From positions 32,001 through 96,000 of the IMG/VR virus record IMGVR_UViG_3300027801_000011: DNA of 64,000 bases; one strand, given 5' to 3'. The notes beneath the pieces were generated by a model. It had not been told where the DNA came from, ran no database searches, and saw only the letters and a list, made by a program, of their open reading frames with translations. This DNA is from a virus. Position numbers and translations under genes: made by a program. Below are positions 9,717 to 25,040 of the stretch, in pieces. The first letter of the stretch is position 1; every line of letters starts with the position of its first letter.

Positions 9717-10240
9717 TGTATTTTGCAGCATTCCCTAAGATATATTACGATGGTAAAGGAGATGGACACTTCAAGGTAGTAACTAATTTCTTACGCCGAG
9801 TAGCAGTACGTACCAAACTAAAAACACATGGAGCCCTATTCGATACCTATGATGTTAAAGAGGGTGAAACTCCAGAGATGATTGCACACAAACTGTATGG
9901 AGATTCAGAGTACCATTGGGTGGTACTGCTTATGAATGATGTAGTTGATAGGTTCCACGGGTGGCCAATGTCTACTCCACAGTTCCTAGCATTTGTTGAA
10001 GAGAAGTACGACAGTGCAGATGATATACATCATTACGAAATAGATTCTGTGTCTGGGCCTGTTAAGAAGATCGACATAGGTAAGGACAATACAGATTACC
10101 CTATGGCTAGTATTGTTACTAACATAGAATTTGAAGAGGCAGAACAGGATAAGAAACGGAAGATTAAACTACTAGACCCACGATACTTAGAACAATTTAC
10201 GACAGAATATAAAGCAATAATGTCGGAGTCGCAGATATAA
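9716..10240 (+). CDS. gp53: baseplate wedge protein
   Basis: MYFAAFPKIYY, YDVKEGETPEMIAHKLYGDSEYHWVVLLMN, KRKIKLL. Confidence 0.93.
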   Translation: MYFAAFPKIYYDGKGDGHFKVVTNFLRRVAVRTKLKTHGALFDTYDVKEGETPEMIAHKLYGDSEYHWVVLLMNDVVDRFHGWPMSTPQFLAFVEEKYDSADDIHHYEIDSVSGPVKKIDIGKDNTDYPMASIVTNIEFEEAEQDKKRKIKLLDPRYLEQFTTEYKAIMSESQI

Positions 10241-10241
10241 A

Positions 10242-11690
10242 ATGGTTGATACTATTGGTAATGCCGGCGAATTCTCACTTGAATTAGTGCAGATAATCGC
10301 TGCAGACGGAACAGAACTAGACATTACATCAAATGTCATGGAGATCGATATATACGAAGATATTGAATCTCCATGCATTAGAGGTACAATAGCATTCAAT
10401 GATCCGATAAACTTTATGAACACACTGCCTGTTGTAGGGCAAGAGATGATTCGGGTACAGGTTAAAACTCCTTCATTCAAAACCTCAGAAGAAATCATAG
10501 AGTACCTATTCTACATGTACACGATTAGGTCTATGGTTGAAACCAATCCAAACAGCAATGTTGTTGTTATGGAATTCAGTTCTGTTGAATATATTGTCGA
10601 TGCTAGGAAGAGAGTCAACAGGACGTTAAAGGGTACGTGGTCAGATATAGTTACAGCCATAGTACGAGGTGATCTAGAAAGCACCAAAGATGTATGGGCT
10701 GAACCTACCGCAGGCATTAAACAAATAATGGCCCCAGACATTTCTCCATTAGCTGTTATTAAGAACGCTAAGAGGGAGGCTATATGTACTGAGTTCGGTT
10801 CGCCCACATATCATTTCTATGAGACAACACAGGCATTTCATTTCAGATCATTAGAGAGTTTGTACACAAAGGAAATTGCTGGATACTACACCACAGCACC
10901 ACAGGGCGGATTAGAGAAGAGAAATAAGGGTATGCCCAATGTCCTTGCAGACTTCCAGAAGATAAGAGAATGGACAATAGACCAGACACGTGATACCCTA
11001 TCTAACAGTGCAAATGGCATGTGGTCATCTGAAACCATTGAGCATGACATATTCAACAAGACGTTCACTACAACCAATTATAACTATTTCGATTCCTTTG
11101 AGACTGAGAAACATATAGACGATTTCGATGAGAAGACTACTTCACAGCCTCTCTTTAGTGCTGGTGCTGTAGATGATTCTAATGGTAGGTTGTCAGACTA
11201 CTATAAGAAGAGTTATCTGTTGCCAGTATCAATCAAGGATAAGACATCTGGTAGTGACTCACATTACACAAATTCCAAGGGTCGATATCCTTTCACTGGA
11301 TATAATCCCAGTAAGTGGATAGGTAGACGCACATCCACAGTAGAGCAAGTTAATGCAGGCCTTAGTATAACCATGACTGTTGATGGATACACTGCCATTC
11401 ATGCTGGTGATGTTGTAGAATTAGAACTGCCCTCCTCTAGTCAGAATAAGAGTGCAGACGGACAAACGGTTGATAGGTGGTTTCGTGGTAAATTCCTTAT
11501 TAGGAATATGAAACACTCATTTAGTGTGACTACGGGTAAGCATGAAATCATGATGCAATGTGTTAAGGACAGCACAGCATCTCAACCAGAAGGTGATCCC
11601 AAAGAACCTAGTCCACAACCAAAACAATACGGCAAGTCAAATCAATTGGCGCCGAAGACATATAACAAACGTAGCGATTTCTACGGATAA
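10242..11690 (+). CDS. baseplate hub protein (gp27-like)
   Basis: IDIYEDIESPCIRG, LPVVGQE, FYET..FHFRSLESL, GKFLIRNMKH; follows gp53. Confidence 0.65.
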   Translation: MVDTIGNAGEFSLELVQIIAADGTELDITSNVMEIDIYEDIESPCIRGTIAFNDPINFMNTLPVVGQEMIRVQVKTPSFKTSEEIIEYLFYMYTIRSMVETNPNSNVVVMEFSSVEYIVDARKRVNRTLKGTWSDIVTAIVRGDLESTKDVWAEPTAGIKQIMAPDISPLAVIKNAKREAICTEFGSPTYHFYETTQAFHFRSLESLYTKEIAGYYTTAPQGGLEKRNKGMPNVLADFQKIREWTIDQTRDTLSNSANGMWSSETIEHDIFNKTFTTTNYNYFDSFETEKHIDDFDEKTTSQPLFSAGAVDDSNGRLSDYYKKSYLLPVSIKDKTSGSDSHYTNSKGRYPFTGYNPSKWIGRRTSTVEQVNAGLSITMTVDGYTAIHAGDVVELELPSSSQNKSADGQTVDRWFRGKFLIRNMKHSFSVTTGKHEIMMQCVKDSTASQPEGDPKEPSPQPKQYGKSNQLAPKTYNKRSDFYG

Positions 11691-11760
11691 CCAAAGGAGA
11701 GTCCACATCAGTCAGCGTAACAAGTTTATCTCAGAACGAATTAAAGCAAAGGAACTCAAA

Positions 11761-11937
11761 ATGGCTAAAACAAAAAACAGAATCAAAAATATGACATTTC
11801 AGACCCAACCTCGCCAGATGGAACCGTTAACCCCCCTTTCAGAAAGTGATAAATATATTGCGAACCTACAGAGATACAGTTACAAAGAACTAGGACAATT
11901 AGATGAAAAGATACCACGAACTACTGCCCTTGCTTGA
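11761..11937 (+). CDS. small hypothetical protein
   Basis: AAGGA SD before ATG 11761; overlaps next start. Confidence 0.45.
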   Translation: MAKTKNRIKNMTFQTQPRQMEPLTPLSESDKYIANLQRYSYKELGQLDEKIPRTTALA

Positions 11938-12589
11938 AGGGGTGTACGACAAAAATATCTTTAAAGCAGTCTTCCTCGCTGGTGGGCCTGGTAGCGGCAA
12001 ATCTTATGTCGTTGGCCAGACCACTGGTGGGTTGGGCCTTAAAGTAGTCAATTCAGATGATAATTTTGAAAGACTATTAGATAAGGCAGGGCTGACTAAG
12101 AAGATGGATACTAAACGAGGTGAACGTGAGGCAGAAAAAAGAGATGTCGTGCGGGATCAGGCTAAGAGTATCACTGATAAACAGAAGAACACCTATGTTG
12201 ATGGTCGCCTTGGGTTGATCATTGATGGTACTGGACATGACTTTGAAAAGATTAACAGGATGTCTTCGAAACTGAGGATGTTAGGATATGAGACATATAT
12301 GGTCTTTGTTAACACTTCTCTAGACGTTGCACTACAATCCAATGCAGAAAGAGACAGAGTTGTACCTAGTGCTATTGTTGCTAAGTCCCATAAAGCAGTG
12401 CAGTCTAATCTAGGTAAATTCAGTAATCATTTCAGAGGCAATCTAGTCATCGTGGACAATAACGACAGAACACAGGAACCTATTAAGCTAGCCACTAAAC
12501 AGGTTAGACGTTTGCTTAAGAAACCAGTAAACACCTCAATATCAAAGAATTGGATCGCTGGTGAGATGGAGAAGAAAAGAGCTAAATAA
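11903..12589 (+). CDS. zeta-toxin-like P-loop kinase
   Basis: AVFLAGGPGSGKS Walker A, VNSD, LIIDGTG, MVFVNTSLDVAL, VDN. Confidence 0.75.
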   Translation: MKRYHELLPLLEGVYDKNIFKAVFLAGGPGSGKSYVVGQTTGGLGLKVVNSDDNFERLLDKAGLTKKMDTKRGEREAEKRDVVRDQAKSITDKQKNTYVDGRLGLIIDGTGHDFEKINRMSSKLRMLGYETYMVFVNTSLDVALQSNAERDRVVPSAIVAKSHKAVQSNLGKFSNHFRGNLVIVDNNDRTQEPIKLATKQVRRLLKKPVNTSISKNWIAGEMEKKRAK

Positions 12590-13152
12590 TGAATTTTTGG
12601 GAAACTCTTGACTCTTGGGCAGACAACGATCTAACAGACCTACTTCATGATCACGTAGACAATCACGCCACCATGCTCTCTGAGTGTGAGGCGTTTGAGC
12701 ATTGGACACGGGTAGATGAAAACTATGGATTCTGGACACCAGATTCAATAAAGAACCATATCAAAGGCATTGCACCTAATATCGCCAAGTCATCACCACA
12801 TGGCCCTTGGGATAGGTGGTTTGCTATGCCCACAGAAGAAGACTTCCCCACACTACACAAATACCTCTATTCACACAGTGAATACAAGAACCCCATCATA
12901 TCTAAGCTTGGCCCAGGAGCTCAACTAGCTCCCCATTCACATCCTAAACAAAAAATGCTTTATAATATGTCGATTAACTACCCAGAAGGGTGTCAATTTG
13001 CGGTGTATCCTACAGGACTTATACCATATAAGGCAGGAGATGTGTATAAAATCAAGGTTCAGCAGGAACATGCGGTATATAACCGCTCTAATAGTGACAG
13101 ATATCATGTTCAAATAGCAGATGTTGCAGATATGTCACGCATCTTCAGATAA
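12589..13152 (+). CDS. Asp/Asn beta-hydroxylase-like 2OG-Fe(II) oxygenase
   Basis: LGPGAQLAPHSH..EHAVYNRSNSDRYH double-stranded beta-helix motifs. Confidence 0.7.
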   Translation: MNFWETLDSWADNDLTDLLHDHVDNHATMLSECEAFEHWTRVDENYGFWTPDSIKNHIKGIAPNIAKSSPHGPWDRWFAMPTEEDFPTLHKYLYSHSEYKNPIISKLGPGAQLAPHSHPKQKMLYNMSINYPEGCQFAVYPTGLIPYKAGDVYKIKVQQEHAVYNRSNSDRYHVQIADVADMSRIFR

Positions 13153-13173
13153 TTTAAAAATAATGCATTTAAT

Positions 13174-13214
13174 GTACGATTTCGCTTGACATTACCCTTT
13201 GGATGGTCTATACT
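13174..13214 (+). promoter_or_regulatory. early sigma70 promoter with upstream GTACGATTTCGC box
   Basis: TTGACA(13186)-N17-TATACT(13209). Confidence 0.85.
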
Positions 13215-13243
13215 AAGGTATAAACTGAGAAAAGGAAGACAAG

Positions 13244-13543
13244 ATGTTAATTAGTAATTGGAAAGAGAATTTTAAAGGCACTGGCGTTTGGGAAGCAACT
13301 AACTGCATCTCAGGCAATATCTCGCAGAGTCCTAAACTTGTCGGCGATGCCCCCGATGGATGGGGTCATAAAACAAGCTTTACGGCATTTGGTGGTTTCG
13401 GTGAAATCATGAATATGGGTGAGGCGTTTGAGACTTTTGAGGAGGCCGCTGAATTTATGGAGGCGTGCTTCACTTGGGAAGTTGAACTCAACGGACGCTC
13501 CCTTACTCTAACAGGTGATAGGGTGAACCTCAATGATGAATAA
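13244..13543 (+). CDS. hypothetical early protein
   Basis: AAGGA SD; first gene after strong promoter. Confidence 0.7.
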   Translation: MLISNWKENFKGTGVWEATNCISGNISQSPKLVGDAPDGWGHKTSFTAFGGFGEIMNMGEAFETFEEAAEFMEACFTWEVELNGRSLTLTGDRVNLNDE

Positions 13544-13805
13544 TGAATTCGTATTCCTTTCCCCCGAAGTCTCTAGTAAGACTAGAGATGTCATGGGCTT
13601 TGATGACTGTGGCACAGGGGAGAATATCATGATAAACTCTTCTTGGATGATGGCTCATATCATGCACCGAATCGGTTTGTTCCCAAGTGTGGGAATCGCC
13701 CGTAAAAATGGGTGGAATAAGGCCATTCCAGAGGGCTTTTCGGAGTGGACGGTAGGAAAAAATAAAATAAAAGTTTGGATTCTCAATGAATTCAATGAGT
13801 TATAG
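13533..13805 (+). CDS. hypothetical early protein
   Basis: Overlapping start; MAHIMHRIGLFPSVGIARKNGW. Confidence 0.7.
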   Translation: MMNNEFVFLSPEVSSKTRDVMGFDDCGTGENIMINSSWMMAHIMHRIGLFPSVGIARKNGWNKAIPEGFSEWTVGKNKIKVWILNEFNEL

Positions 13806-13806
13806 G

Positions 13807-13847
13807 GTACGATTTCGCTTGACAAAACCCTTTAGTGCTGTTATACT
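13807..13847 (+). promoter_or_regulatory. early sigma70 promoter with the same upstream box
   Basis: GTACGATTTCGC-TTGACA(13819)-N17-TATACT(13842). Confidence 0.85.
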
Positions 13848-13880
13848 ATGTATATAATGAGAGTTAACAAAGAGAAAGAT

Positions 13881-14123
13881 ATGATTATGAAAAACGATTT
13901 TGCAATGTTTACCACTAAAGGTAATAATGAAGTTGGTAAGTTAGTTGATGCCGCTATCGCTGGTGAATGGAAGTGGGAAAAGACTTCTTATGCCTTGGCT
14001 TTACTTGGTGGAACTGAGATTGGTGGTGAATTTGAAGAAGCCACGGATACTGCTGTTAGAGAAGCAGTTTGGGAAGCCATGATTACTTACAATCCTGGCA
14101 TGGACTATGGAGTAACAAAATAA
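13881..14123 (+). CDS. hypothetical early protein
   Basis: Start moved downstream of -10 box; FAMFTTKGN..EATDTAVREAV. Confidence 0.7.
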   Translation: MIMKNDFAMFTTKGNNEVGKLVDAAIAGEWKWEKTSYALALLGGTEIGGEFEEATDTAVREAVWEAMITYNPGMDYGVTK

Positions 14124-14527
14124 TGGTTATGGTTAATAAAAAGTTCGACAATATCGATGACGGTATTGCAAATATGATCGCTGCTGCGAATTATGATTAT
14201 GATAATTTCAACGTGAGTGATGACATGAAGGCCGACTTTAAGAAGGGTTGGGAGATCAAGAAAGGTTCTAAGTACATCAAGATTAATACTAAGAACTCTG
14301 CTTGGGGATTCGTTGTCAACACTGATGACGATAAGAAGTTCATGAAGGGCGACTTGCTCATGTGTGCTGGTTATAAGGCCCCTGCTAGAAATGGTGCAAG
14401 AGGTAACGTCCTTGAAGGTGGTTTCGAAATCCGCTGGACTGGCCCTCTCTACTTGGTAGATAAAGGTCGAAAGGCCGCAAATTGGGGCAACCCTGCCGCA
14501 AAACTTAGCATTAACATTGGAGGTTAA
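14123..14527 (+). CDS. conserved phage hypothetical protein
   Basis: TAATG coupling; GSKYIKI..SAWGFV..KGDLL..KAPARN..RGNV..IRWTGPLYL. Confidence 0.75.
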   Translation: MVMVNKKFDNIDDGIANMIAAANYDYDNFNVSDDMKADFKKGWEIKKGSKYIKINTKNSAWGFVVNTDDDKKFMKGDLLMCAGYKAPARNGARGNVLEGGFEIRWTGPLYLVDKGRKAANWGNPAAKLSINIGG

Positions 14528-14529
14528 TT

Positions 14530-14658
14530 ATGGAAAACCCTAACACATTTCGAGAGAAATTCATCACGTTCAGCAGGATTGCTGGAGACACCCTTGCTAT
14601 CTTGTCTATCTTTGGCATGGGTTACGTTTGTTTGGTAGTTTTTGGAGATAGATATTAA
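14530..14658 (+). CDS. 42-aa single-TM peptide (not in ORF track)
   Basis: GGAGG SD; MENPNTFREKFITFSRIAGDTLAILSIFGMGYVCLVVFGDRY. Confidence 0.65.
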   Translation: MENPNTFREKFITFSRIAGDTLAILSIFGMGYVCLVVFGDRY

Positions 14659-14666
14659 AAAGGTAC

Positions 14667-14695
14667 TTGACATCTTGGTGATGTTATGGTAGTAT
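14667..14695 (+). promoter_or_regulatory. sigma70 promoter with extended -10
   Basis: CTTGACA-N17-TAGTAT with TG upstream of -10. Confidence 0.75.
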
Positions 14696-14701
14696 AATAA
14701 C

Positions 14702-14945
14702 ACTGAAGGAAGACTTCTGGAGATGGGTTTAGTGACTTTTCCCATCTAGGGCATAACGCCACTGTTAGTCTTTCATTCGGATTTCCTCTGGTAATCAAAC
14801 TACCCCCCAGAGGAATAGCAAGAGGGACGCAGCTCGAAACGCCAAAGATAAAATCAAGGCGACAACAAGGCGGGGTATTGGTGATGTACGTACTACCATT
14901 AAAGATGTACCGCTGTTGGGGGTCAGCGTTAACAAAACCCCCACT
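14702..14945 (+). ncRNA. candidate multi-stem structured RNA
   Basis: ORF-free; starts at predicted TSS; at least 7 stems plus possible pseudoknots. Confidence 0.65.
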
Positions 14946-14971
14946 TATTGGTTTCTAATGGAAGAAAGTAT

Positions 14972-15283
14972 ATGTCTAAAATTGACGCTCTAATGAAAAC
15001 TTACGAAGGTGTGGAAACTGTTTCTGTTATCCATGCCGCTATGGATGATGCAATCAGTCCAACTGTGGTTGCAATGGTCGAAGTCTCTAGTGGACTTAGC
15101 GATACTGCTAAGTTAGAGAAGGCCTTCATGTTGACGAACTCTATTAATGATGCATGGTGGAATAACAAAGATGTTACCCCTATGTTCAGCGAGAAAGGTT
15201 GTCGATCTACTATGGTTGGAGACATGGTGCTAATCGGTACTGTGAAATATAAATGTGACTCAATGGGATGGAGTAAAGTATAA
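14972..15283 (+). CDS. conserved phage hypothetical protein
   Basis: LEKAFMLTNSINDAWW..RSTMVGD motif. Confidence 0.7.
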   Translation: MSKIDALMKTYEGVETVSVIHAAMDDAISPTVVAMVEVSSGLSDTAKLEKAFMLTNSINDAWWNNKDVTPMFSEKGCRSTMVGDMVLIGTVKYKCDSMGWSKV

Positions 15284-15426
15284 TGTGGAAGTTTAAATCA
15301 AATGTGTATGGGGGGACTGCCCCTGCCGTAGTACGGCGGTTGAAGAGACAGGATGTCGATTTGTCTGATTCAGTTAGTCGGGCGAAGTTTGGATACAACT
15401 ATTTGGAGTATGTGTCCAATGATTAA
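15283..15426 (+). CDS. 47-aa hypothetical protein (not in ORF track)
   Basis: TAATG coupling; MWKFKSNVYGGTAPAVVRRLKRQ.. Confidence 0.5.
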   Translation: MWKFKSNVYGGTAPAVVRRLKRQDVDLSDSVSRAKFGYNYLEYVSND

Positions 15427-15706
15427 AGCGATGTTGATTGTTGCCTCTATGGGCATCAATACGGAGATGCCTGATATGGACTCTTGCTTAAAAGCAAGGG
15501 CCATGATCATGTCCCAAGATTCTTCAATCAAGAGTCTATGTGTACCAAAGGCGGCCGATAGTGATAAGATGAAGGAGATGTTCGGCGTCTTCATGGATAT
15601 GATTGATAGAATAAAGGAGTATGAAGAACTTGATAGATTCAATAGAGAAGAAGATAGACAGTGCTGTACGGATGAGGGAAATCTCGACTACAGACTGGGC
15701 TCGTAA
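15419..15706 (+). CDS. hypothetical protein
   Basis: MIKAMLIVASMG.. hydrophobic N-terminus, C..CVP pair. Confidence 0.6.
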   Translation: MIKAMLIVASMGINTEMPDMDSCLKARAMIMSQDSSIKSLCVPKAADSDKMKEMFGVFMDMIDRIKEYEELDRFNREEDRQCCTDEGNLDYRLGS

Positions 15707-15767
15707 TTACTGGACGATGGTAGTTAAACAACTCCTTGCAATCGCAACGAGGGTCGAACCTAAATAA
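15621..15767 (+). CDS. 48-aa hypothetical protein (not in ORF track)
   Basis: AAGGAG SD; MKNLIDSIEKKIDSAVRMREISTTDWARNYWTMVVKQLL. Confidence 0.65.
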   Translation: MKNLIDSIEKKIDSAVRMREISTTDWARNYWTMVVKQLLAIATRVEPK

Positions 15768-15785
15768 TAATGAAAGAACTATAGA

Positions 15786-16028
15786 ATGATCGATGACGAA
15801 AAGCTAATGGAACTCTATAATAAGAGTTTCGTTCAAACCGTACAATTATCAGAAGAGTACAGCGTTCTCGCTGTCGCTGCAACCTTGTTAGGTCAGTCGA
15901 TGAGATTGTATAAAACTGTTTTGGATGAAGATGAGTTTTATGATATGATTGAGGCGTTTACTGAAACGGTGGGAGAGATCAAACCGTATGACCCTCAAAT
16001 GATAGCAGAAGGGTCTACAATCCATTAA
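15786..16028 (+). CDS. hypothetical protein
   Basis: 80 aa ORF in operon. Confidence 0.7.
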   Translation: MIDDEKLMELYNKSFVQTVQLSEEYSVLAVAATLLGQSMRLYKTVLDEDEFYDMIEAFTETVGEIKPYDPQMIAEGSTIH

Positions 16029-16040
16029 AAAGGGGCGGAA

Positions 16041-16364
16041 ATGGTAACTATTACAGAAGCAGCACGAAAATATATGAAGAGTGTTATCTTATATGGTGAC
16101 TTTGTAACGCTTGGTGTTAAGGGCGGTGGGTGTTCAGGCTTTCAATATGTCTGGGGACTCAAGAATGGTGATCTGCAAGGTATGACTGAAAACGTGAAGT
16201 GGTCAGACCCTATTGATGAGGTACTAGTATTAGACCCATTGGCAGAGATGTATATCATGGGCAGCGAAATAGATTATGTCACCGAATTGGGTGGATCATA
16301 TCTCGCAGTCAAGAACCCCACTAGTAAGAGTAGCTGTGGTTGTGGCGAGAGTTTTGGAGTATAG
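16041..16364 (+). CDS. iscA: IscA/HesB A-type Fe-S carrier
   Basis: GVKGGGCSGFQY, GSEIDY, NP..SSCGCGESF. Confidence 0.93.
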   Translation: MVTITEAARKYMKSVILYGDFVTLGVKGGGCSGFQYVWGLKNGDLQGMTENVKWSDPIDEVLVLDPLAEMYIMGSEIDYVTELGGSYLAVKNPTSKSSCGCGESFGV

Positions 16365-16863
16365 CGTCTTGTGGCGTAGACTGAACATACAATATGATAT
16401 CGATCAGATCAAATGGGAATACGAAAATACCAAGAACATGTTGTCTTGGTATGACTCCATTGGCGGTTCGAAGCAACTGGCATTACAGTCCTATGATGGT
16501 GATCCTACCCCATATAAGAGTGGCTGTGGTAGCATGAAGCGTCAGCCAGGTATGACAGAGTACGATTATAATGTGATAAATCCCGCTTTCAATAAAGGCA
16601 TATTTTCTAGGATAATCACCCCATATCATCGTGCTAGATTCATGACAATGATTAAACACAGTACATATAGTGTACACAAGGATAAATCACCTCGCCTTCA
16701 TATGGCAATAGACACACACCCCCATGCATATTTCTTTTGGCCTGACACCAAAGAGGTTGTACATATACCAGCAGATGGTTTTGTGTATTGGGTGGACACT
16801 ACAGAGAATCACACATTTGTCAATGCAGGGCCAGATAGAACGCATTTAGTTATGGTCGAATAG
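16276..16863 (+). CDS. Asp/Asn beta-hydroxylase-like oxygenase (true start probably near 16340-16360)
   Basis: RARFM..YSVHKD.SPRLH..HIPADG.VYWVDTT..HTFVNAG.DRTHLV. Confidence 0.7.
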   Translation: MSPNWVDHISQSRTPLVRVAVVVARVLEYSVLWRRLNIQYDIDQIKWEYENTKNMLSWYDSIGGSKQLALQSYDGDPTPYKSGCGSMKRQPGMTEYDYNVINPAFNKGIFSRIITPYHRARFMTMIKHSTYSVHKDKSPRLHMAIDTHPHAYFFWPDTKEVVHIPADGFVYWVDTTENHTFVNAGPDRTHLVMVE

Positions 16864-16872
16864 GAGATTATT

Positions 16873-17190
16873 ATGGACATCAAGAGCAAGTACACATACG
16901 TGACTAACAATAAGGATGAGACTCAATGTATTGGACTCACGCCTGAAGCTAGTACATTCCAAGGTGTAATATACAAATACGGCAAGGTGTCAGCACCTAA
17001 CCCAGATGAATTAAATTCAGAAGGGGACTTGCCTTTACGGTTCGACTATGATATAGTAGATAATAATTCGCTTCCAGAAGAATGGTTGAGAAGCGATGAA
17101 TTTCATACACTCATTGGTGATATCCTTGTGGATATTATGGATGAACAACTAACTAAAGGAACATTGAATTTTGCCAACACAGACGATTGA
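16873..17190 (+). CDS. conserved T4-like hypothetical protein upstream of gp41
   Basis: GVIYKYGKV..LRFDYDI..F..LIGDILVDI; AGGAG SD. Confidence 0.75.
   Translation: MDIKSKYTYVTNNKDETQCIGLTPEASTFQGVIYKYGKVSAPNPDELNSEGDLPLRFDYDIVDNNSLPEEWLRSDEFHTLIGDILVDIMDEQLTKGTLNFANTDD
17029..17057 (+). promoter_or_regulatory. internal sigma70 promoter for helicase
   Basis: CTTGCCT-N17-TATAGT. Confidence 0.5.
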
Positions 17191-18565
17191 ACGAACGACT
17201 TTAAGTCAACTAGTATATAATGAAGAATATGCACGTAAGGTGCTTCCCCATATGAAGGCAGACTATTTCTCAGACAGGACTGAGAAGATCGTGTATCAAG
17301 AGATACAGAAGTTTGTAGAACGATACAATGCCCTACCTACCAAAGAAACCCTTGAGATAGAGATTGACACACGCCGTGATCTGAATGAAGATGACGTTAA
17401 GCGTGTGCTATTGGTGGTCAAGGACTTAGACCCAGATAAGGATGTCAATTTTGAGTGGTTGGTAGAGACTACTGAGAAATTCTGTAAAGACAAGGCTGTG
17501 TATAATGCCATTGTCGAGGGCATATCCATCATTGATGGCAAGGATAAGGATAGGTCAGCAGATGCTATACCTACCATATTGACAGATGCCCTTGCTGTGG
17601 GATTTGACAATAGAGTGGGCCATGATTATCTGCAAGATGCAGAAGAGCGTTTTGATTACTACCACACGATAGAAGAGAAGATACCATTTGATCTGGAATT
17701 CTTTAATAAGATCACGAAGGGTGGACTACCACCTAAGACATTGAACATTGCCCTCGCTGGTACAGGTGTAGGTAAATCGTTGTTTATGTGTCACGTTGCT
17801 GCCAATTGTATGACACAGGGAAAGAATGTCCTGTATATCACACTAGAGATGGCAGAAGAACGTATCGCTGAACGTATAGATGCCAATCTCATGAACATAT
17901 CAATGGAAGACTTACATGATCTACCTAAGACCATGTTTGATTCTAAGATTGGTCGTATCATGAAGAATACCACAGGTCAGCTCATTGTCAAGGAATACCC
18001 TACTGCTGCTGCCCATACAAATCATTTTCGTGGACTGCTTAAGGAATTAGCAGTCAAGAAATCATTTAAACCAGACATCATATTCATAGATTATCTGAAT
18101 ATTTGTGCATCATCACGACTCAAGGGAGCAGCGAATGTCAATTCTTACACGTATATTAAATCAATTGCAGAGGAACTTAGGGGACTTGCTGTTGAGACTA
18201 ACGTACCGATTATGTCTGCTACACAGACTACAAGGTCGGGGTTCTCTAACTCAGACGTTGGGTTGGAAGACACAAGTGAAAGTTTTGGACTTCCTGCTAC
18301 AGCAGACCTCATGTTTGCTCTTATTAGTAACGAAGAGCTTGACGCTCTCAATCAGATCGCAGTTAAACAGTTAAAGAATAGGTATAATGACCCAACTGCC
18401 AATAAGAGATTTGTGATTGGCATAGATCGTGCCAAGATGCGACTCTATGATGTGAAGTTGACTGAACAGGAAGGTATACTGGATGCTAATCTAACTGGTG
18501 ATGTACCAGATGCATTTAGTGAACCAGTATTCGATAAAACAGATTTCGGTGGATTCAAGGTATGA
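17171..18565 (+). CDS. gp41: DnaB-like replicative helicase
   Basis: LAGTGVGKSL, ITLEMAEERIAERIDAN, IFIDYLNIC, SESFGLPATAD, QLKNRY. Confidence 0.97.
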   Translation: MPTQTIERTTLSQLVYNEEYARKVLPHMKADYFSDRTEKIVYQEIQKFVERYNALPTKETLEIEIDTRRDLNEDDVKRVLLVVKDLDPDKDVNFEWLVETTEKFCKDKAVYNAIVEGISIIDGKDKDRSADAIPTILTDALAVGFDNRVGHDYLQDAEERFDYYHTIEEKIPFDLEFFNKITKGGLPPKTLNIALAGTGVGKSLFMCHVAANCMTQGKNVLYITLEMAEERIAERIDANLMNISMEDLHDLPKTMFDSKIGRIMKNTTGQLIVKEYPTAAAHTNHFRGLLKELAVKKSFKPDIIFIDYLNICASSRLKGAANVNSYTYIKSIAEELRGLAVETNVPIMSATQTTRSGFSNSDVGLEDTSESFGLPATADLMFALISNEELDALNQIAVKQLKNRYNDPTANKRFVIGIDRAKMRLYDVKLTEQEGILDANLTGDVPDAFSEPVFDKTDFGGFKV

Positions 18566-18574
18566 GGTTGCCCT

Positions 18575-19816
18575 TTACTTGTCCCAAGACTTGATGGCAG
18601 TAAAGTTATTGTAAGAGAATTCCATACGATCCACTAGTTTGACAGCATCACCAGAGATACGATCAATCGCAACATAACCCTCTGGGTTAGTCACCTTGAA
18701 GCCATCAGCAGTACGTACAAATGTACCCATACCCTTAACAGAATTCAATTTCTTAACAATCATCATCTTACCCTCAACCAATAGGTTCTGAAAGGTGATA
18801 ACCTGTACGAGATTGATGGTATGCTTCTTGACTTCTCTCATGAATTCTTTCTGAATATTCGTGTATTTCTTCTTACCGCCCTCTGATTTGGCTTTATCAA
18901 TCTGCTTCTGTATGCTGGTCATAACCCATTCCTCATATCCCTTGGCATGCTTGGCTGGATTAGTAATGATCTGACCAGCACGTACCTTAGAGTTATTGTA
19001 GGTTTTGAGGGATGCACCAGCAACGGCGCCTGTCATAGAGTTTTGTAGAGCAAGGAAAGATCGTAGTTTAACAGCACTAATCTTTTGGAATGTCTTACCA
19101 GTAGAGGATAGAATCGCTGTGATTTTCTCTGTCTCGCCCGTAGTGAATGTAGACGAACCAGACGTATCCTTATAAGTGGCATCATCCATCCATATAGAAG
19201 AGGGTTTCTTCAAAGAACTGATATTGGCACCAAATGATGCTTTCATTCCTTGGAGTGTACTACCTGTATATGTGGTATGCCATACGATACCTATTTTAGA
19301 CTTTTTTATATAATTACCAAGATCACTATCCACGGGTACAGCATAGACAATAGTGTTAGGTTGAAATGTGATATATTTAATGCCATCGATAGTCTTATTC
19401 TCAGTATCATCAGTCCACATAAGATCGCCCTGTAGAACGCCTTTGATACCAAGTTTAGAGAATTCAGTAAGTGCCACCTTGAATTTACTATTCAATGCAC
19501 CAGATAGATCATCATCAATTTCCTTAATAGACTTATACAATTTGGGATTAACATTAAACACAGACTTTTTGGCAACAAAGAACTTACCATCATCGGGGTC
19601 TATACCAGCAAAGATCGCTGGTGCGCCATCCCATTTGACAGTCATATTAACAGAAGAACGAGAAGAACCAGCCAACATATCACGTAGAGAACGAAGGAAG
19701 TTCAATGCTGCCCTACCACCATCAACACCAAAGTTAATGATCTCATCCTCTAAGTGTTCAAGATGTAAGTTCTTGCCACCTTTATCTTCAGTAATCATTG
19801 TATTAAATTTCATCAT
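18575..19816 (-). CDS. conserved T4-like protein (DUF6267-like) with ligase-type KxDG motif
   Basis: KNLHLEHLED, TVKWDGAPAI, VLQGDLM, FQPNTIVY, PEGYV, VKLVDRMEFS; start reset to 19816. Confidence 0.75.
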   Translation of the reverse strand: MMKFNTMITEDKGGKNLHLEHLEDEIINFGVDGGRAALNFLRSLRDMLAGSSRSSVNMTVKWDGAPAIFAGIDPDDGKFFVAKKSVFNVNPKLYKSIKEIDDDLSGALNSKFKVALTEFSKLGIKGVLQGDLMWTDDTENKTIDGIKYITFQPNTIVYAVPVDSDLGNYIKKSKIGIVWHTTYTGSTLQGMKASFGANISSLKKPSSIWMDDATYKDTSGSSTFTTGETEKITAILSSTGKTFQKISAVKLRSFLALQNSMTGAVAGASLKTYNNSKVRAGQIITNPAKHAKGYEEWVMTSIQKQIDKAKSEGGKKKYTNIQKEFMREVKKHTINLVQVITFQNLLVEGKMMIVKKLNSVKGMGTFVRTADGFKVTNPEGYVAIDRISGDAVKLVDRMEFSYNNFTAIKSWDK

Positions 19817-19821
19817 GCTTC

Positions 19822-19852
19822 TATTTATATCATAAACAATATAGTATGTCAA
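19822..19852 (-). promoter_or_regulatory. composite early/late promoter
   Basis: TTGACA-N17-TATAAA where the -10 is part of a perfect TATAAATA. Confidence 0.7.
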
Positions 19853-19870
19853 GTCACAATAAATAGAATA

Positions 19871-20074
19871 ATGCCAGATAGATACGGAGAAAATACAAGA
19901 GAATGGATGATCATGTATAGTGATATAGAGATGGATAAAGAGTGGCATACGACTGCCTGTATAGGGGTTTGCACGCTCGAGGATGACGTATGCATAGGGT
20001 GTAATAGGACTATGGATGAGATTAGAGAAGCGTATATAGAGAGTATGCGGAGAGATTCCCATATAATCCCATAG
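19871..20074 (+). CDS. DUF1289-like small Cys-rich protein (start may be 19931)
   Basis: CIGVCTL..CIGCNRTMDEI. Confidence 0.65.
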   Translation: MPDRYGENTREWMIMYSDIEMDKEWHTTACIGVCTLEDDVCIGCNRTMDEIREAYIESMRRDSHIIP

Positions 20075-20083
20075 GAACCCATA
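20058..20083 (+). repeat. three CCCATA direct repeats at 10-bp spacing
   Basis: CCCATA at 20058, 20068 and 20078. Confidence 0.7.
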
Positions 20084-20194
20084 AAATAGGGTATTTAAAT
20101 AAAGGTTAAAATAAACATGATGCCGTTGTGATATGAATTTGTAGACTCTCAGCATAAGCTCCACACAGCCCTCAGAATTATTATAGAAAGGGAC

Positions 20195-20223
20195 TTGACA
20201 ATGGCCCCATATAGGTGTATATT
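20195..20223 (+). promoter_or_regulatory. sigma70 promoter
   Basis: CTTGACA-N17-TATATT. Confidence 0.75.
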
Positions 20224-20310
20224 AGGCCATGCTGGGCTTTTAAGGGTAGCTATAGAGTGTAACATTAATACAACACAGAGATAATAAACACAAATAAGCT
20301 AAATGAGTGC

Positions 20311-20339
20311 TTGACATATCCCTGCCAGCCATGTATAGT
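20311..20339 (+). promoter_or_regulatory. sigma70 promoter
   Basis: CTTGACA-N17-TATAGT. Confidence 0.8.
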
Positions 20340-20375
20340 ATTACTATAATGAGGATTAACGGTAAGGATAGAGAG

Positions 20376-20594
20376 ATGACTGAATTAACACTAGTGGCAG
20401 ACGGCTGGATGGAGAAGGGTGTACGAGTGGTATGCTGGAGATATGGTTCATATGACTATGAGATAGAGATATACAATATGAAGCTAACATCTAAGGAGAC
20501 TAAGGTCACTATACCGTATAAGGCCTCCTATGAGGCGACTATCGCCCATGTTAAGGAGATGTGTGCAGCTACTAACGCCTGTTGTGTGTATTAA
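20376..20594 (+). CDS. hypothetical early protein
   Basis: Follows promoter 20311; AAGGA/GAGAG leader. Confidence 0.6.
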   Translation: MTELTLVADGWMEKGVRVVCWRYGSYDYEIEIYNMKLTSKETKVTIPYKASYEATIAHVKEMCAATNACCVY

Positions 20595-20604
20595 AAGAAA
20601 GTAC

Positions 20605-20633
20605 TTGACATATACCTTATAGTGTGTTATAGT
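20605..20633 (+). promoter_or_regulatory. sigma70 promoter
   Basis: CTTGACA-N17-TATAGT. Confidence 0.8.
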
Positions 20634-20639
20634 ACTAAT

Positions 20640-20731
20640 AGAATTGAGAGAGTGATTCGTTAAGGTTGGATGGGTCATGTTAAAGTTCCACAATGGTGGT
20701 GTGACAAGTGAGTCGATCCTCTCTCAGCTCT
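20640..20731 (+). ncRNA. candidate ~92-nt nested-stem small RNA
   Basis: Starts at predicted TSS; four nested helices; no ORF. Confidence 0.55.
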
Positions 20732-20797
20732 CTCTAAGAAGGGTGGCCCCTTTAAACTGGCCGCCAATGTCTAATCTATAAATGTAATAAGTATCCA

Positions 20798-21001
20798 ATG
20801 AAACATCTAACAGCAACTGAAAGGATCAACCCCCCAATGGCCAATTCCCCTATATCTTTAAGCTCCTCAGAGGCAATCACAATATCAGTATTAGAGAAGG
20901 AACTTGGTTCACCCTCTATAGATTCCCGATACAGAGAATGTATCATTAGGAGAATTGAGTACATCAAGGAGAACTTACAGGACAACATGGCCACCCCCTA
21001 A
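20798..21001 (+). CDS. hypothetical protein
   Basis: 67 aa ORF after CTATAAAT. Confidence 0.45.
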   Translation: MKHLTATERINPPMANSPISLSSSEAITISVLEKELGSPSIDSRYRECIIRRIEYIKENLQDNMATP

Positions 21002-21062
21002 AACTGGAAGGGGGCCATATCCCTTAACTGGGAATAAAAATTCAGCTGGCCCAAAAAAAGAC

Positions 21063-21091
21063 TTGACAAGGCTGTTTATATGTGTTACTAT
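21063..21091 (+). promoter_or_regulatory. sigma70 promoter
   Basis: A-tract then CTTGACA-N17-TACTAT. Confidence 0.75.
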
Positions 21092-21124
21092 AACACTTAA
21101 CAATTGAGAAGGAACTACTACACT

Positions 21125-21445
21125 ATGAATGAATACAATATTGGCGACACCGTGTCCTATCTGGACGAATATAACGGAATGAAGTCTGGAGTTATCGCAG
21201 AGGTTGCCTCTGATATGGACTCCTATAACGATATGAAGCTTGAGGATGGTATTCCTTACTATGCTTCGAAGAAGCTGACAGCAGCTGCGAATAAGAAGTT
21301 AAAAAATGAAGCGAAAGCTCCGTTAACCTCTCCCGTATATGCGAAGGTCAAGCCGAAGAACATGGAATCAGTCTTCCTTATTCTGAAGAAGGATTTGGCG
21401 GCTGTTGAGGAGGAGTTTATCATGATGGATGATGTTATTGGATAA
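21125..21445 (+). CDS. hypothetical protein
   Basis: AAGGA SD; YNIGDTVSY (KOW/SH3-like start). Confidence 0.7.
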   Translation: MNEYNIGDTVSYLDEYNGMKSGVIAEVASDMDSYNDMKLEDGIPYYASKKLTAAANKKLKNEAKAPLTSPVYAKVKPKNMESVFLILKKDLAAVEEEFIMMDDVIG

Positions 21446-21983
21446 CCTTATAAGGACTGTGGATGGCGCTCTTAGTGCTGAGCAGTGTGATTACCTTATC
21501 GATATGTTTGAGAGGAACGTAGCTCTTCAAGAGACGCAGATGAATGGCAAAGGCCAATCATTAACCCGTATGAATTTGATGGGTTCCTCTCATACCCCCT
21601 TTAGAGAAGACTTGGATTACTTAACCAAGGTCTTTAGTGCTGGTGTGGAGAAGTACAAGGCTGCATGTGGTATTCAGTCATGGCAGTTCCCGAAGAAGTA
21701 TGCCCTAGAGGCCATAAAAATCAAGCGATACGAGCCTGATACTAATGAGAGCTTCCCCGATCATATAGATGTGATGGATTTAGAGATGAGCCGCCGTTTT
21801 TTGGTGATGTTTATCTACCTTACTGACAATGAGGGTGGTCAGACGTTCGTACAGGACTTTGTAAGCCCCTGTAAGCAAGGCACTATGCTATTGTTCCCAC
21901 CTATGTGGCCTTGGGTTCATTCAGGCGAGTCTCCTGTGAAAACATCTAAGTATATTTTAGGGAGTTATCTGCATTATGTCTAG
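21429..21983 (+). CDS. 2OG-Fe(II) oxygenase (prolyl-4-hydroxylase-like)
   Basis: IKRY..HID..RRFLVMFIYL..GG.T..LLFPPMWPWVHSG..KYILGSYLHY. Confidence 0.88.
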   Translation: MMLLDNLIRTVDGALSAEQCDYLIDMFERNVALQETQMNGKGQSLTRMNLMGSSHTPFREDLDYLTKVFSAGVEKYKAACGIQSWQFPKKYALEAIKIKRYEPDTNESFPDHIDVMDLEMSRRFLVMFIYLTDNEGGQTFVQDFVSPCKQGTMLLFPPMWPWVHSGESPVKTSKYILGSYLHYV

Positions 21984-22626
21984 TTTATCTCGTTTGGCTG
22001 GTTCTGTGACGCCGGGCGCTACATTCAGTGAGAAGTTTAAGGCGAAAGTGGTTGACTTGGAACAGTCGATGCACTATAATACCGAACGAGCCACTGGAAC
22101 TTGCGTTGGTGGCACCGAAGGCTATACGATGGCCGAGATGAACGATGCCCTACGGAATGATATAAGAGAATCAGGCGATTCGTTTCAAGGTCGGAACTCT
22201 TCTACTGCCTCCTTTATGACAAGATGGGACATGCATCAAACCTATGGTTCATTTTCTCTTCTGGGTGATCTAGCAATAGAGGCAGCCGCAGACATACCCC
22301 TGGCGATACGGACGTTTGCTGATGGAAGTCCTAATCCTATATCTCTTTACGTTCAAGAGAGCTGGGGTTTGATATATAATAAGGGTCATACGTGTAAAAC
22401 GCATACGCATTGGCCTTCCACGTGGTCTTACACCTATTGTGTGGATGCATGTGAGAAATGTGCGCCTCTTTGTTTCCCAACAAATGATGGTGTTCATCCT
22501 ATACCCCCAAAGCAAGGGCAGTTAATACTCTTTCCTTCTTGGGTTAATCACTTTGTGCCAGAGCATGAGTGTGATCACGAAAGAATTATGATCTCTGGCA
22601 ACCTAGACGTAGATTGGAAAAAGTAA
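21976..22626 (+). CDS. putative 2OG-Fe(II) oxygenase
   Basis: ESWGLIY..HTHWPSTWS..GQLILFPSWVNHFV..RIMISGN. Confidence 0.85.
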   Translation: MSSLSRLAGSVTPGATFSEKFKAKVVDLEQSMHYNTERATGTCVGGTEGYTMAEMNDALRNDIRESGDSFQGRNSSTASFMTRWDMHQTYGSFSLLGDLAIEAAADIPLAIRTFADGSPNPISLYVQESWGLIYNKGHTCKTHTHWPSTWSYTYCVDACEKCAPLCFPTNDGVHPIPPKQGQLILFPSWVNHFVPEHECDHERIMISGNLDVDWKK

Positions 22627-23273
22627 TGCAAGGTAAAATGAGTTTAAAAGAATTAAGTGCTATGGTTAATGTCAACAATAAGGCGTTCGATGCTAATCGA
22701 CGGCCTGATATGTACCAGCATCCGAAGAACAGACCCTTTCAAGTGGGATATCCGCTCATTCAACAGCATGTTGATCTGCCAGAGGGTGTAGATGAGGAAC
22801 TTATACAGATTATCAAGGGCCGAGGTGATACACAACGTCACAAAACGAACGTCAAAGCGGATATGACGGATTGGTTCATGCAAAAACAGCACCCACAGTT
22901 TCAATTGGTGGGCGATGTAGCGATTGAACTCGCAAAACGTGAGTCTCCCTATGACATGGCGATGGAACTGTTCGATTGTTGGGGTGTCATCTATCAAAAA
23001 GACGATTGGACAAAGGCCCACGATCATTGGCCTCACCCGTGGTCGTTCGTTTATTACATAAGATGCGGAGTAGACGATTCGCCCCTAGCGTTCCCCGATG
23101 GATATCAAGGTGAGCATCATTTGAAGCCTGTTTCTGGTGACATGATCCTCTTTCCAGGCCATTTGAGGCACAAAGTACCCAGACAAACGCATGATTCAGA
23201 GAGAATCATAGTGGCAGGGAACATTTCACCCATGCTTTTACCTTTGGCACACCCTTTTAGAAGGTTTGATTAG
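22626..23273 (+). CDS. putative 2OG-Fe(II) oxygenase, paralog of previous gene
   Basis: DCWGVIY..HDHWPHPWS..GDMILFPGHLRHKV..RIIVAGN. Confidence 0.85.
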   Translation: MQGKMSLKELSAMVNVNNKAFDANRRPDMYQHPKNRPFQVGYPLIQQHVDLPEGVDEELIQIIKGRGDTQRHKTNVKADMTDWFMQKQHPQFQLVGDVAIELAKRESPYDMAMELFDCWGVIYQKDDWTKAHDHWPHPWSFVYYIRCGVDDSPLAFPDGYQGEHHLKPVSGDMILFPGHLRHKVPRQTHDSERIIVAGNISPMLLPLAHPFRRFD

Positions 23274-23289
23274 TCTAAATAAACTTCAC

Positions 23290-23508
23290 ATGACAATAAG
23301 AACCACAAAAACGGGAAACAAGTTTCGTGTAATGGTCTTAGAAGACCCTAATGTTCCAGATGTGTATCTGGAGTATCAGAGCGGACTGAGCTTTGAGGAG
23401 GCACATGAGATGTTAGCCTTCTACGCAGACCAAGGAAAGAATGACTTGGTACTTGAAGAATACTATCCAGATGCTAATCGTATAGGACGCAATCCCGAGC
23501 TCCATTAA
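23290..23508 (+). CDS. hypothetical protein
   Basis: C-terminal RIGRNPELH; precedes gp5. Confidence 0.6.
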   Translation: MTIRTTKTGNKFRVMVLEDPNVPDVYLEYQSGLSFEEAHEMLAFYADQGKNDLVLEEYYPDANRIGRNPELH

Positions 23509-23512
23509 TCCT

Positions 23513-23520
23513 TATAAATA
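23513..23520 (+). promoter_or_regulatory. T4 late promoter
   Basis: TATAAATA 5 nt before gp5 ATG. Confidence 0.75.
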
Positions 23521-23525
23521 GGTTT

Positions 23526-25040
23526 ATGGAAACAGAAAATCAATATTTTATGGGCATGGACGGATTCGTATGGTTCGTTGGTGTTGTTGAAGATCGTAAC
23601 GATCCAGACCAACAAGGCAGGGTTCGAATACGCTGTCTAGGATATCATAGTCAGAACCATCATGAGGTTCCAACAACTGATCTACCTTGGGCTCACGTTA
23701 TGCATCCCGTCACAGACCCTTCTATGCATGGAATGGGCAACAGTCCTTCTTGGCTTGTTGAAGGCTCTTGGATTATCGGATTCTTTCGAGATGCAATAGA
23801 GAAACAACAACCCATCATCATAGGTTCAATGCCTGGCCAACCTTCTGAGGTTGCGAACTACCGAACAGGGTTCAACGATCCTCGACACAAAGAGTCCACT
23901 CAGACAAATGATGCTGGTATTAAAGAATATGCAGCCAACCCAGAAGATGAGGCGGATTACGGCCCCTATCCTTTGGGAGCGATAAAGGATAACTCTCTAC
24001 CAGAAGACAAACAAACGAAATTCAGTAGGTTCTCTGGACACACTGTCGGAGAAACGGACACAAGTCGTTTGGGTAGAGGTATAACATCAGAAAATCATGC
24101 TGCACTATCACGAAGACGCAAGCAACGCCGTACGAAGATACCTACTGCCACCAAACCATTCATACCTACGGTTGAAAACCTTAGTGTAAATGGAACTAAT
24201 AAAGCAGATGTGATGAAACCGTGGGATGAATTGCATCCTAAAGGTCTAACCAAGGATGCATCTCCCTATATCTCAGCCGCTTATCCATACAACCACGTAT
24301 ATGAGAGCGAGTCTGGTCATCTTATGGAGATTGACGATACGCCAGGCGGAGAAAGACTCCACAGAGAGCATATGTCTGGTACGTTTGAAGAGATTCATCC
24401 AAAAGGAGATAAGGTTGTCAAGGTTGTCGGATCGAACTACGAGATTATCGCTGGTTCCTCTAATGTTATTATAACAGGAGATGTAAATCTTACAATAGAA
24501 GGCACGAAGAAAGAACTTATCAAGGGAGATTACGTTCTAGAGGTAGAAGGCGATTATACGAGGAAGATACATAAGAACGAGAGAATGAAAGTTGGGTCTG
24601 GAATAGGTGGCAACCTAGAACAAGAGATTGTTGGAAACAATTCCTTCAATATCAATGGTGCAGTAAAGGGCCGGATTAATAAAGACTCCGATACTACCAT
24701 TGTAGGAAACCAACAACACACCGTAGAGGGATTCCAACGTACTTCTATCACAGGAGACATCGGCAGGAAGTCTACTAAGGGTTCTATTATGGATGAGGCG
24801 TTTGTTAACTACTCTCAACTGTCGATATCTGGTATCATGTCTGTCAAGTCTGGTACAACAGGTAACTTTAAGACTGCTGATGTCATGACAATTCATTCAG
24901 AGGCCGCAACCAATTGGCGTTCCGAAGGCTTGGTTACAGAAACCTTCGAAGCAAGTCATACTAATAACACTACAGGGATTTTCGACTTGAACGTATCGAC
25001 TGAAGTTGATATCGACAGTGCGTTGATTAACTTAAACTAG
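23526..25040 (+). CDS. gp5: baseplate central spike (OB-fold plus beta-helix, no lysozyme domain seen)
   Basis: WFVGVVEDRNDP..GRVR.RC.GYH, DLPWA, YPYNHVYESESGH..DDTPG.ER, V.G repeats. Confidence 0.92.
   Translation: METENQYFMGMDGFVWFVGVVEDRNDPDQQGRVRIRCLGYHSQNHHEVPTTDLPWAHVMHPVTDPSMHGMGNSPSWLVEGSWIIGFFRDAIEKQQPIIIGSMPGQPSEVANYRTGFNDPRHKESTQTNDAGIKEYAANPEDEADYGPYPLGAIKDNSLPEDKQTKFSRFSGHTVGETDTSRLGRGITSENHAALSRRRKQRRTKIPTATKPFIPTVENLSVNGTNKADVMKPWDELHPKGLTKDASPYISAAYPYNHVYESESGHLMEIDDTPGGERLHREHMSGTFEEIHPKGDKVVKVVGSNYEIIAGSSNVIITGDVNLTIEGTKKELIKGDYVLEVEGDYTRKIHKNERMKVGSGIGGNLEQEIVGNNSFNINGAVKGRINKDSDTTIVGNQQHTVEGFQRTSITGDIGRKSTKGSIMDEAFVNYSQLSISGIMSVKSGTTGNFKTADVMTIHSEAATNWRSEGLVTETFEASHTNNTTGIFDLNVSTEVDIDSALINLN

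Follow-up and report, generated by a model that had tools for sequence, protein, structure and literature searches.

The question raised by this locus is whether the 313 bases (14659-14971) that separate a 42-aa ORF from a 103-aa gene starting at 14972 hold a self-contained RNA or belong to the message of that gene. A first-pass annotation had read positions 14702-14945 as a promoter-driven, multi-domain structured RNA of ~245 nt, possibly a new phage ncRNA, a ribozyme or a cis-regulator of ORF 14972. The reading favored here, to which we give a probability of roughly 0.55, is that 14702-14971 is the 5' leader of gene 14972-15283, and that its first ~77 nt are a conserved cis-acting module of a promoter-plus-leader cassette.

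Host genome, promoter and predicted transcript

The window, the whole 64,000-nt stretch that was analyzed, corresponds to bases 32001-96000 of a 115-kb IMG/VR virus contig that is ~64% complete. Its products include the T4-type baseplate proteins gp5 and gp6, a tail-tube assembly protein and a DnaB-like helicase, which shares 69% identity with that of the Methylophilales (OM43) phage Melnitz and ~64% with its homologs from cyanomyoviruses. Judged by gp41 sequence, the nearest cultured relative is the OM43 phage Melnitz, and the clade that carries the RNA motif described below is one of uncultured marine T4-like myoviruses. The locus itself lies within a block of small plus-strand early genes (Table 1). 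The phage also encodes a homolog of ribosomal protein bS21 (G000:C1:16598-16756, locus L154, ~15.3 kb before the start of the window; PF01165, 44.4 bits, over the cut-off), which could have a bearing on the translation of phage leaders.

Table 1. Features of the locus, in window coordinates
Feature	Position	Strand	Support or remark
42-aa ORF	14530..14658	+	ORF listing; ends 9 nt 5' of the -35 box
Sigma70-type early promoter	14667..14695	+	-35 TTGACA, 17-nt spacer, TG-extended -10 TAGTAT
Three-way-junction leader motif, diverged but intact	14702..14778	+	covariance-model match, fold z -2.94, family covariation
P1 of this copy	14708-14715/14767-14774, extendable to 14703-14715/14767-14780 with one bulge	+	
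P1b of this copy	14718-14720/14762-14764	+	
P2 of this copy	14721-14727/14741-14747	+	13-nt loop, enlarged relative to other copies
P3 of this copy	14750-14752/14758-14760	+	
Perfect 9-bp hairpin with 15-nt loop, lineage-specific	14783..14815	+	inverted repeat, 100% complementary; z -3.95
Leader remainder with weak stems CGCC/GGCG, GCGG/CCGC and TGGGGGT/ACCCCCA	14818..14945	+	shuffle-like folding
Early gene, 103 aa, no Pfam family	14972..15283	+	weak SD GGAAG at 14960-14964

The annotated promoter is borne out by the promoter scan (10 of 12 consensus matches plus the TG), and the spacing from the -10 box places the predicted transcription start near A14702. The scan found no other strong promoter match before the ATG at 14972, and a terminator scan over the same interval found no canonical terminator, so the RNA is most simply the 5' UTR of gene 14972, which is presumably transcribed from the 14667 promoter. 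The leader (14702-14971) would thus be untranslated and unusually long. Homologs of gene 14972 are present in 11 viral contigs at 49-100% identity, and the spacer is found upstream of the gene only in the contig with identical sequence. In the other contigs small ORFs directly abut the gene, and the orthologs in 10 relatives have no cassette.

Every string quoted in the first-pass annotation is present at its position, and the claimed stems appear in the minimum free energy (MFE) fold: P1, AGATGGG/CCCATCT, GGC/GCC, TTCCTCTGG/CCAGAGGAA, CGCC/GGCG, the GCGG/CCGC stem and TGGGGGT/ACCCCCA. The fold of the whole 244 nt is nevertheless not beyond chance. The MFE of 14702-14945 is -72 kcal/mol, ~1.6 sd under dinucleotide shuffles (z = -1.59, with 16 of 200 shuffles equally good), and the minus strand of the region folds equally well (z = -1.73). 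Divided into parts, the region shows a fold z of -2.94 for 14702-14780 (1 of 200 shuffles as good) and of -3.95 for the hairpin 14783-14815 (0 of 200), while 14818-14915 (z -0.72) and 14912-14960 (z -0.67) fold like shuffled sequence. The argument from GC-rich stems in an AT-rich genome fails, the region being 44-47% GC against ~42% in its surroundings.

The absence of a recognizable family holds. Searched at gathering thresholds, the 64-kb window gave no match to Rfam 15, with its riboswitches, ribozymes, tmRNA and phage motifs like manA, wcaG and PhotoRC, and 14400-15200 gave none even at E<=10. ARAGORN found no tRNA or tmRNA, blastn of the region and of a cassette against 50,697 GenBank phages returned nothing relevant, and a literature search with the motif strings found unrelated primers only.

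A three-way-junction motif behind early promoters

The 5' domain of the proposed RNA is one copy of a repeated promoter-linked motif, a point overlooked in the first-pass annotation. Pattern scans recover the motif in ~10 IMG/VR contigs and ~45 marine metagenome contigs, every one of which belongs to a relative of the present phage; the patterns were built from strings shared by the copies, and chance matches without the closing stem were removed. A covariance model (R1) scores true copies at 59-95 bits and found further diverged copies within the same loci. The window copy scores 65.5 bits (E 3e-19). A second copy in the same genome (G000:C1:20144-20209), 26 kb upstream, follows immediately on a TTGACA-N17-TACTAT promoter, and 10 nt separate it from the SD-ATG of a 99-aa membrane protein, for which a 'SemiSWEET-like' label was rejected, as no Pfam family supports it. 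A search of window positions 10000-24000 with the model and filters off found no degenerate extra copies, and a covariance-model search found the motif to be absent from the Melnitz genome. Compared with this genome, the carrier contigs show 82-84% protein identity for gp41 and ~50% for the gp5-like protein, yet the motif is near-identical, which is conservation far beyond that to be expected of neutral intergenic DNA.

Some matches were set aside. A loose pattern gave two matches in bacterial and archaeal genomes, and these were judged to be chance because cmsearch with R1 over both loci found nothing at E<=0.001. A 20.9-bit match with R1 at G000:C1:5066-5097 (L135) is a simple hairpin only, with P1-like arms (GAGAGACUU-5 nt-AGUCUCUC); it apparently lies inside a coding stretch and is probably a chance match. 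At L126:1-40, the start of a metagenome contig is a Nextera-like adaptor string, TGTATAAGAGACAG, fused to the motif. This is probably an assembly or trimming artifact, and the contig was left out of the alignments.

The ~65-nt consensus is 5'-(G)AGAGACU-UC-UGG-[P2, 6 bp + 5-nt loop]-AG-[P3 GGC-loop-GCC]-A-CUG-YU-AGUCUC(UC)-3'. The closing stem P1 of the family is GAGAGACU/AGUCUCUC, followed by a 3-bp P1b (UGG/CUG), a 6-bp P2 and a 3-bp P3. The junction nucleotides UCUGG, AG and ACUGYU are invariant, although this is partly fixed by the search patterns, which required the strings CTTCTGG, TAGGG and CCAC. The window copy keeps all junction nucleotides and has a longer P1 than its relatives (GAAGACU/AGUCUUU). 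The directly following gene that is usual elsewhere is missing, and a tail of ~190 nt takes its place.

The helices covary. In an alignment of 29 sequences, 97.6% of the paired cells are standard pairs, and six pairs change on both sides; none of 500 shuffles reached this count or the covariation score. When the 3' partners are slid by 1-3 columns, pairing falls to 38-56%. P2 occurs in four forms (AGAUGG/CCAUCU, AGUGGG/CCCACU, AACAGG/CCUGUU and AGAUGG/CCGUCU) and P3 as GGC/GCC or GGA/UCC. The independent events behind these numbers are few, with roughly four types of P2, three of P1 and two or three of P3, all among related phages. The wobble substitutions (U-G, G-U) fit a sense-strand RNA only. 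The P2 and P3 loops differ in both sequence and length, including single-base indels, which excludes coding, and the P2 loop and P3 tolerate insertions. A pseudoknot that had been proposed between the loop TAGTG and CACTG is not a property of the family, since the P2 loops of other members (AACCA, AAUCA, AUUCG, AUUUG, AAACA) are never complementary to the conserved CACUG. The two other proposed pseudoknots are 5-6-nt complementarities.

Two variants depart from the common form. At L153:589-694 (minus strand; IMGVR_UViG_3300017773_005952), P3 of an outer copy is replaced by a complete inner copy, which has the same junction and another closing stem, GGAUU/AAUCC. In the nested fold all 34 of the 34 designed pairs are standard, with an energy of -30.9 kcal/mol versus -38.0 for the MFE. 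None of the 15 ORFs of >=70 aa at this locus matches the present genome. The second variant is a class of copies at L046:6660-6870 (minus strand), and also in L087, L117, L103 and L109, with P2 AACAGG/CCUGUU and P3 GGA/UCC. This L046-type class (L046b) heads a ~150-nt non-coding stretch that has no Rfam match, also at E<=10 around the L046 copies. A hairpin in its tail covaries between contigs (GGCAGCA/UGCUGUC versus GGUUGCAU/AUGCAGCC), and in some contigs a 32-aa hydrophobic ORF follows the stretch.

In all 37 distinct cassettes the motif lies downstream of TTGACA-N17-TAnnnT, within ~15-33 nt of the -10 box and in fixed orientation, with P1 starting ~0-8 nt past the transcription start predicted from the -10 spacing. 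An SD-preceded ATG follows 13-23 nt past the AGTC of the motif in 25 of the 37, so that the SD begins within ~10 nt of P1. The distance from motif to ATG is long in two classes, the window copy (197 nt) and the L046b class (~150 nt). What follows the cassettes is varied, with at least nine distinct contexts in which tiny unrelated ORFans predominate. The 70 nt upstream of the -35 box are unstructured in 31 distinct cassettes (mean z -0.07, none of the 31 below -2). The motif makes no difference to the predicted accessibility of the SD, which is 0.50 with the native motif and 0.48 with a shuffled one (p 0.46), a crude comparison given the approximate choices of start and ATG.

Cassettes also occur in tandem, with up to three in 700 bp (L090/L103). 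For many of them, e.g. in L087, L090, L059 and L134, the TGA stop of the upstream gene lies within the -35 hexamer TTGACA. The C-terminal coding sequences on the upstream side resemble one another, suggesting that units of gene plus cassette were duplicated in tandem.

The motif is not a general leader of this phage, since it is carried by only 2 of the ~15 strong early promoter matches in the genome. Several of the motif-free strong early promoters have short purine-rich leaders, e.g. ATAATGAGAG. Both in the window (promoters 13186, 13819, 20311 and 21063) and across the genome, these short unstructured purine-rich leaders are similar to the 5' flank that the motif has in its cassette. The motif gives the impression of having been inserted into a promoter-leader layout that is in common use.

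The repetition of the cassettes, sometimes three within 700 bp, and their location in variable regions between small ORFans, before different genes, could also indicate an element that acts on DNA. It could be a site for recombination and shuffling, as the promoter-early stem-loop (PeSL) cassettes of T4-type phages have been described (PMC2839356, PMC4122927), or an inverted-repeat operator, and the RNA fold would then be incidental. Such a reading is very unlikely as the whole explanation: the compensatory changes preserve pairing and not sequence, the G-U wobbles would be C-A mismatches on the opposite strand, the orientation to the promoter is fixed in all members, and the nested copy keeps the junction while swapping the closing stem. 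A DNA-level role in recombination of the cassette may coexist with the RNA role.

The 3' tail of the proposed leader

The ~190 nt between the motif and gene 14972 have a different character. An nhmmer search with 14781-14972 against all loci and the whole genome found identical contigs only, and no second site in the genome. The hairpin 14783-14815 likewise occurs in identical contigs only, and a pattern scan for it otherwise returned chance palindromes. Its 3' arm, CCAGAGGAA, contains an SD-like GAGGAA (14810-14815) with no start codon after it, and in the predicted fold this strong hairpin sequesters the SD-like sequence. The last hairpin, 14917-14943, was considered as a canonical intrinsic terminator, defined by a GC-rich stem, a loop of 3-8 nt and a U-run after it. 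It was rejected, having a 13-nt loop and no proper U-run (the sequence that follows is CUUAUUGGUUUCU), and it is not called by the scan.

These results bear on the reading of the whole ~245 nt as one discrete multi-domain non-coding RNA, an sRNA or ribozyme ending at the hairpin 14917-14943. All of its stems exist, the hairpin 14783-14815 is very stable, a U-rich stretch follows the last hairpin, and the L046-type class shows that a motif copy can head a longer non-coding stretch with a covarying hairpin of its own. Nonetheless, the fold as a whole is within reach of shuffles and equaled by the minus strand, 14818-14960 folds like shuffled sequence, and there is neither a canonical terminator nor a match to a ribozyme family. 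The 3' part has no homologs, and its similarity to the tail of the L046 type is not significant (13 of 300 shuffles reach the same score). In addition, gene 14972 would be left without a strong promoter match between motif and ATG, a weaker match being possible. A single RNA of this kind is thus quite unlikely.

The search for homologs and covariation, which had been suggested as a check, divides the region in the same manner: the 5' domain has both, and the rest of the 244 nt is found in identical contigs only. The conserved and covarying part is therefore only the first ~77 nt. Among the roles first proposed, the cis-regulator of ORF 14972 survives, and the discrete multi-domain ncRNA or ribozyme does not. 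The original observation is partly confirmed, in that its object shrinks to a 77-nt module and an unconserved leader, and the 245-nt multi-domain reading is unsupported. The tail is lineage-specific, with one strong hairpin and weak stems, and its membership of a larger folded RNA is unsupported. It may have arisen as an elaboration private to this phage, or it may be what a lost gene has left behind.

The latter possibility, that the 3' 190 nt (14783-14971) are what is left of a small gene or hold an unannotated small ORF, draws on the fact that in most members a gene begins right after the motif and here none does. The GAGGAA at 14810-14815 is also similar to the SD in L045 and L101, the motif variants closest to this copy. 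Two overlapping open frames without an ATG, GTG or TTG start cross the spacer on the plus strand, one of 83 codons (14707-14955) and one of 74 codons (14769-14990), and both are absent from the first-pass account. The 83-aa frame has no homolog among 1.84 billion representative proteins, though, the 74-aa frame has no candidate in a collection of 5.8 billion clusters, and tblastn of both frames against related loci gave no match. The region is indeed free of ORFs in the sense first claimed, with no start-codon ORF of >=30 aa on the plus strand of 14659-14971. Given this, the absence of homologs and the single-base loop indels among motif copies, the spacer was rejected as a coding sequence or pseudogene. 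Remains of a gene, or a small ORF such as the 24-codon frame at 14884-14957, are a highly improbable account of the tail. That 24-codon frame, on the plus strand, begins with ATG and has GGCGGGG upstream.

Comparison with known systems and possible function

Among the systems described so far, PeSL cassettes of T4-type phages come closest (Arbiol et al. 2010, PMC2839356; Comeau et al. 2014, PMC4122927). Like them, the present cassette is short and conserved and includes a strong sigma70-like early promoter, which reads TTGACA-N17-TAnnnT in all copies. Both kinds are repeated within a genome and sit between small ORFans in variable regions, before unrelated genes in related phages. The repeats and gene swaps expected of such cassettes are seen here in the two copies of this genome, the three copies in 700 bp and the cassette-free orthologs of 10 relatives. 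A PeSL ends with the SD and start of the next gene, which is so in 25 of the 37 cassettes but not in the window copy or the L046b class. A PeSL has as its stem-loop a simple terminator hairpin placed immediately 5' of the promoter, where the present cassettes are unstructured; their structure is instead a three-way junction within the transcript, between start site and SD.

The glutamine riboswitch (glnA RNA, RF01739) is reported in Melnitz-like and pelagimyophage genomes (PMC9004378). It too is a small three-stem RNA in marine phage 5' regions past early promoters, with multiple copies possible. Its junction sequence is different, and the genes associated with the present motif are unrelated ORFans. 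The RF01739 consensus, three stems with an E-loop and a pseudoknot, has no match at E<=10 in 14400-15200 or around the L046 copies.

The use of glutamine riboswitches by Melnitz-like phages (PMC9004378) raises the possibility that the three-way junction is a small-molecule riboswitch aptamer governing translation of the next gene. An invariant junction, covarying helices and loops of varying length would suit an aptamer, as would the position directly 5' of the SD in most members and the existence of a nested double copy. Against this, no metabolic or transport theme unites the downstream genes, which are small ORFans unrelated to one another, and the 99-aa membrane protein belongs to no Pfam family. 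There is also no conserved expression platform, the start codon is 150-270 nt away in two classes, neither glnA RNA nor any other riboswitch matches at E<=10, and the P1 sequence is unusually conserved for an aptamer. A metabolite-sensing function is therefore unlikely, and the diversity of the downstream ORFans together with the lack of a conserved expression platform points to a protein that regulates a set of early messages.

In the phage T7 gene 10 leader and the ompA 5' UTR of E. coli, 5'-terminal stabilizers take the form of simple hairpins that lack conserved junction nucleotides. The present motif resembles them in being a folded element at or near the 5' end of the mRNA, followed by an SD, with P1 pairing the first nucleotides of the predicted transcript. 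It differs in its conserved junction nucleotides, and in L153 the inner junction lies away from the 5' end, so that the conserved unit seems to be the junction and not the pairing of the end. A simple hairpin would be enough to protect a 5' end, so end protection does not explain the junction.

The put RNAs of phage HK022 are promoter-proximal cis-acting antitermination RNAs. The likeness, which is one of position and shape only, is to a ~65-70-nt two-hairpin RNA directly past early promoters, with more than one copy per genome and compensatory differences between copies. Unlike the put RNAs, the motif has no identified terminators to be read through, and in most members an SD and gene follow at once.

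The mechanism that we favor is a cassette, consisting of promoter and three-way-junction leader, that is mobile and is placed in front of different small early genes. Its RNA module would act in cis on the early mRNA, most likely as a folded 5'-terminal tag whose invariant junction is recognized by a trans-acting factor. The invariant junction, the covarying helices, the insertions in two arms and an inner copy that is not 5'-terminal argue for recognition by a factor and against simple end protection, although P1 may additionally bury the 5' end. Candidates for the factor are phage or host proteins, e.g. an RNase or a translational regulator, and it would determine how stable, or how well translated, a subset of the early messages is.

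The RegB and RegA sites on T4 early mRNAs would be functional counterparts, in that the motif would likewise label part of the early messages at the post-transcriptional level, by a common cis signal close to the SD. The T4 sites are short and unstructured, GGAG in the SD for RegB and AU-rich start regions for RegA (PMC3014915). GGAG is present in most motif copies (CUGGAG), and one class has GGAA instead (L090b, L046b). Pfam searches of the 64%-complete contig for RegA and RegB gave no match, but the controls were silent as well.

A bolder reading, which we put forward tentatively, is that the junction is a new kind of sensing or self-processing leader RNA. It could be a riboswitch-like aptamer, a natural 5' 'insulator' or an operator bound by an RNA-binding protein that the phage dedicates to it. 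If such a leader travels on a mobile cassette, any newly acquired early gene could be placed under the same post-transcriptional control. Should the junction bind a factor or ligand, the motif would be a new RNA family, matching none of those known, and it would define an early-gene regulon of the phage that is recognizable straight from the sequence. With its short length (~65 nt) and its place behind a consensus sigma70 promoter, the element is easy to test in E. coli.

The known gene-shuffling promoter cassettes of T4-type phages carry a terminator hairpin outside the transcript, whereas here a covarying junction is part of the mRNA leader itself. This suggests that abundant uncultured ocean phages related to those of OM43 and SAR11 have a portable module in which a promoter is combined with a regulatory RNA.
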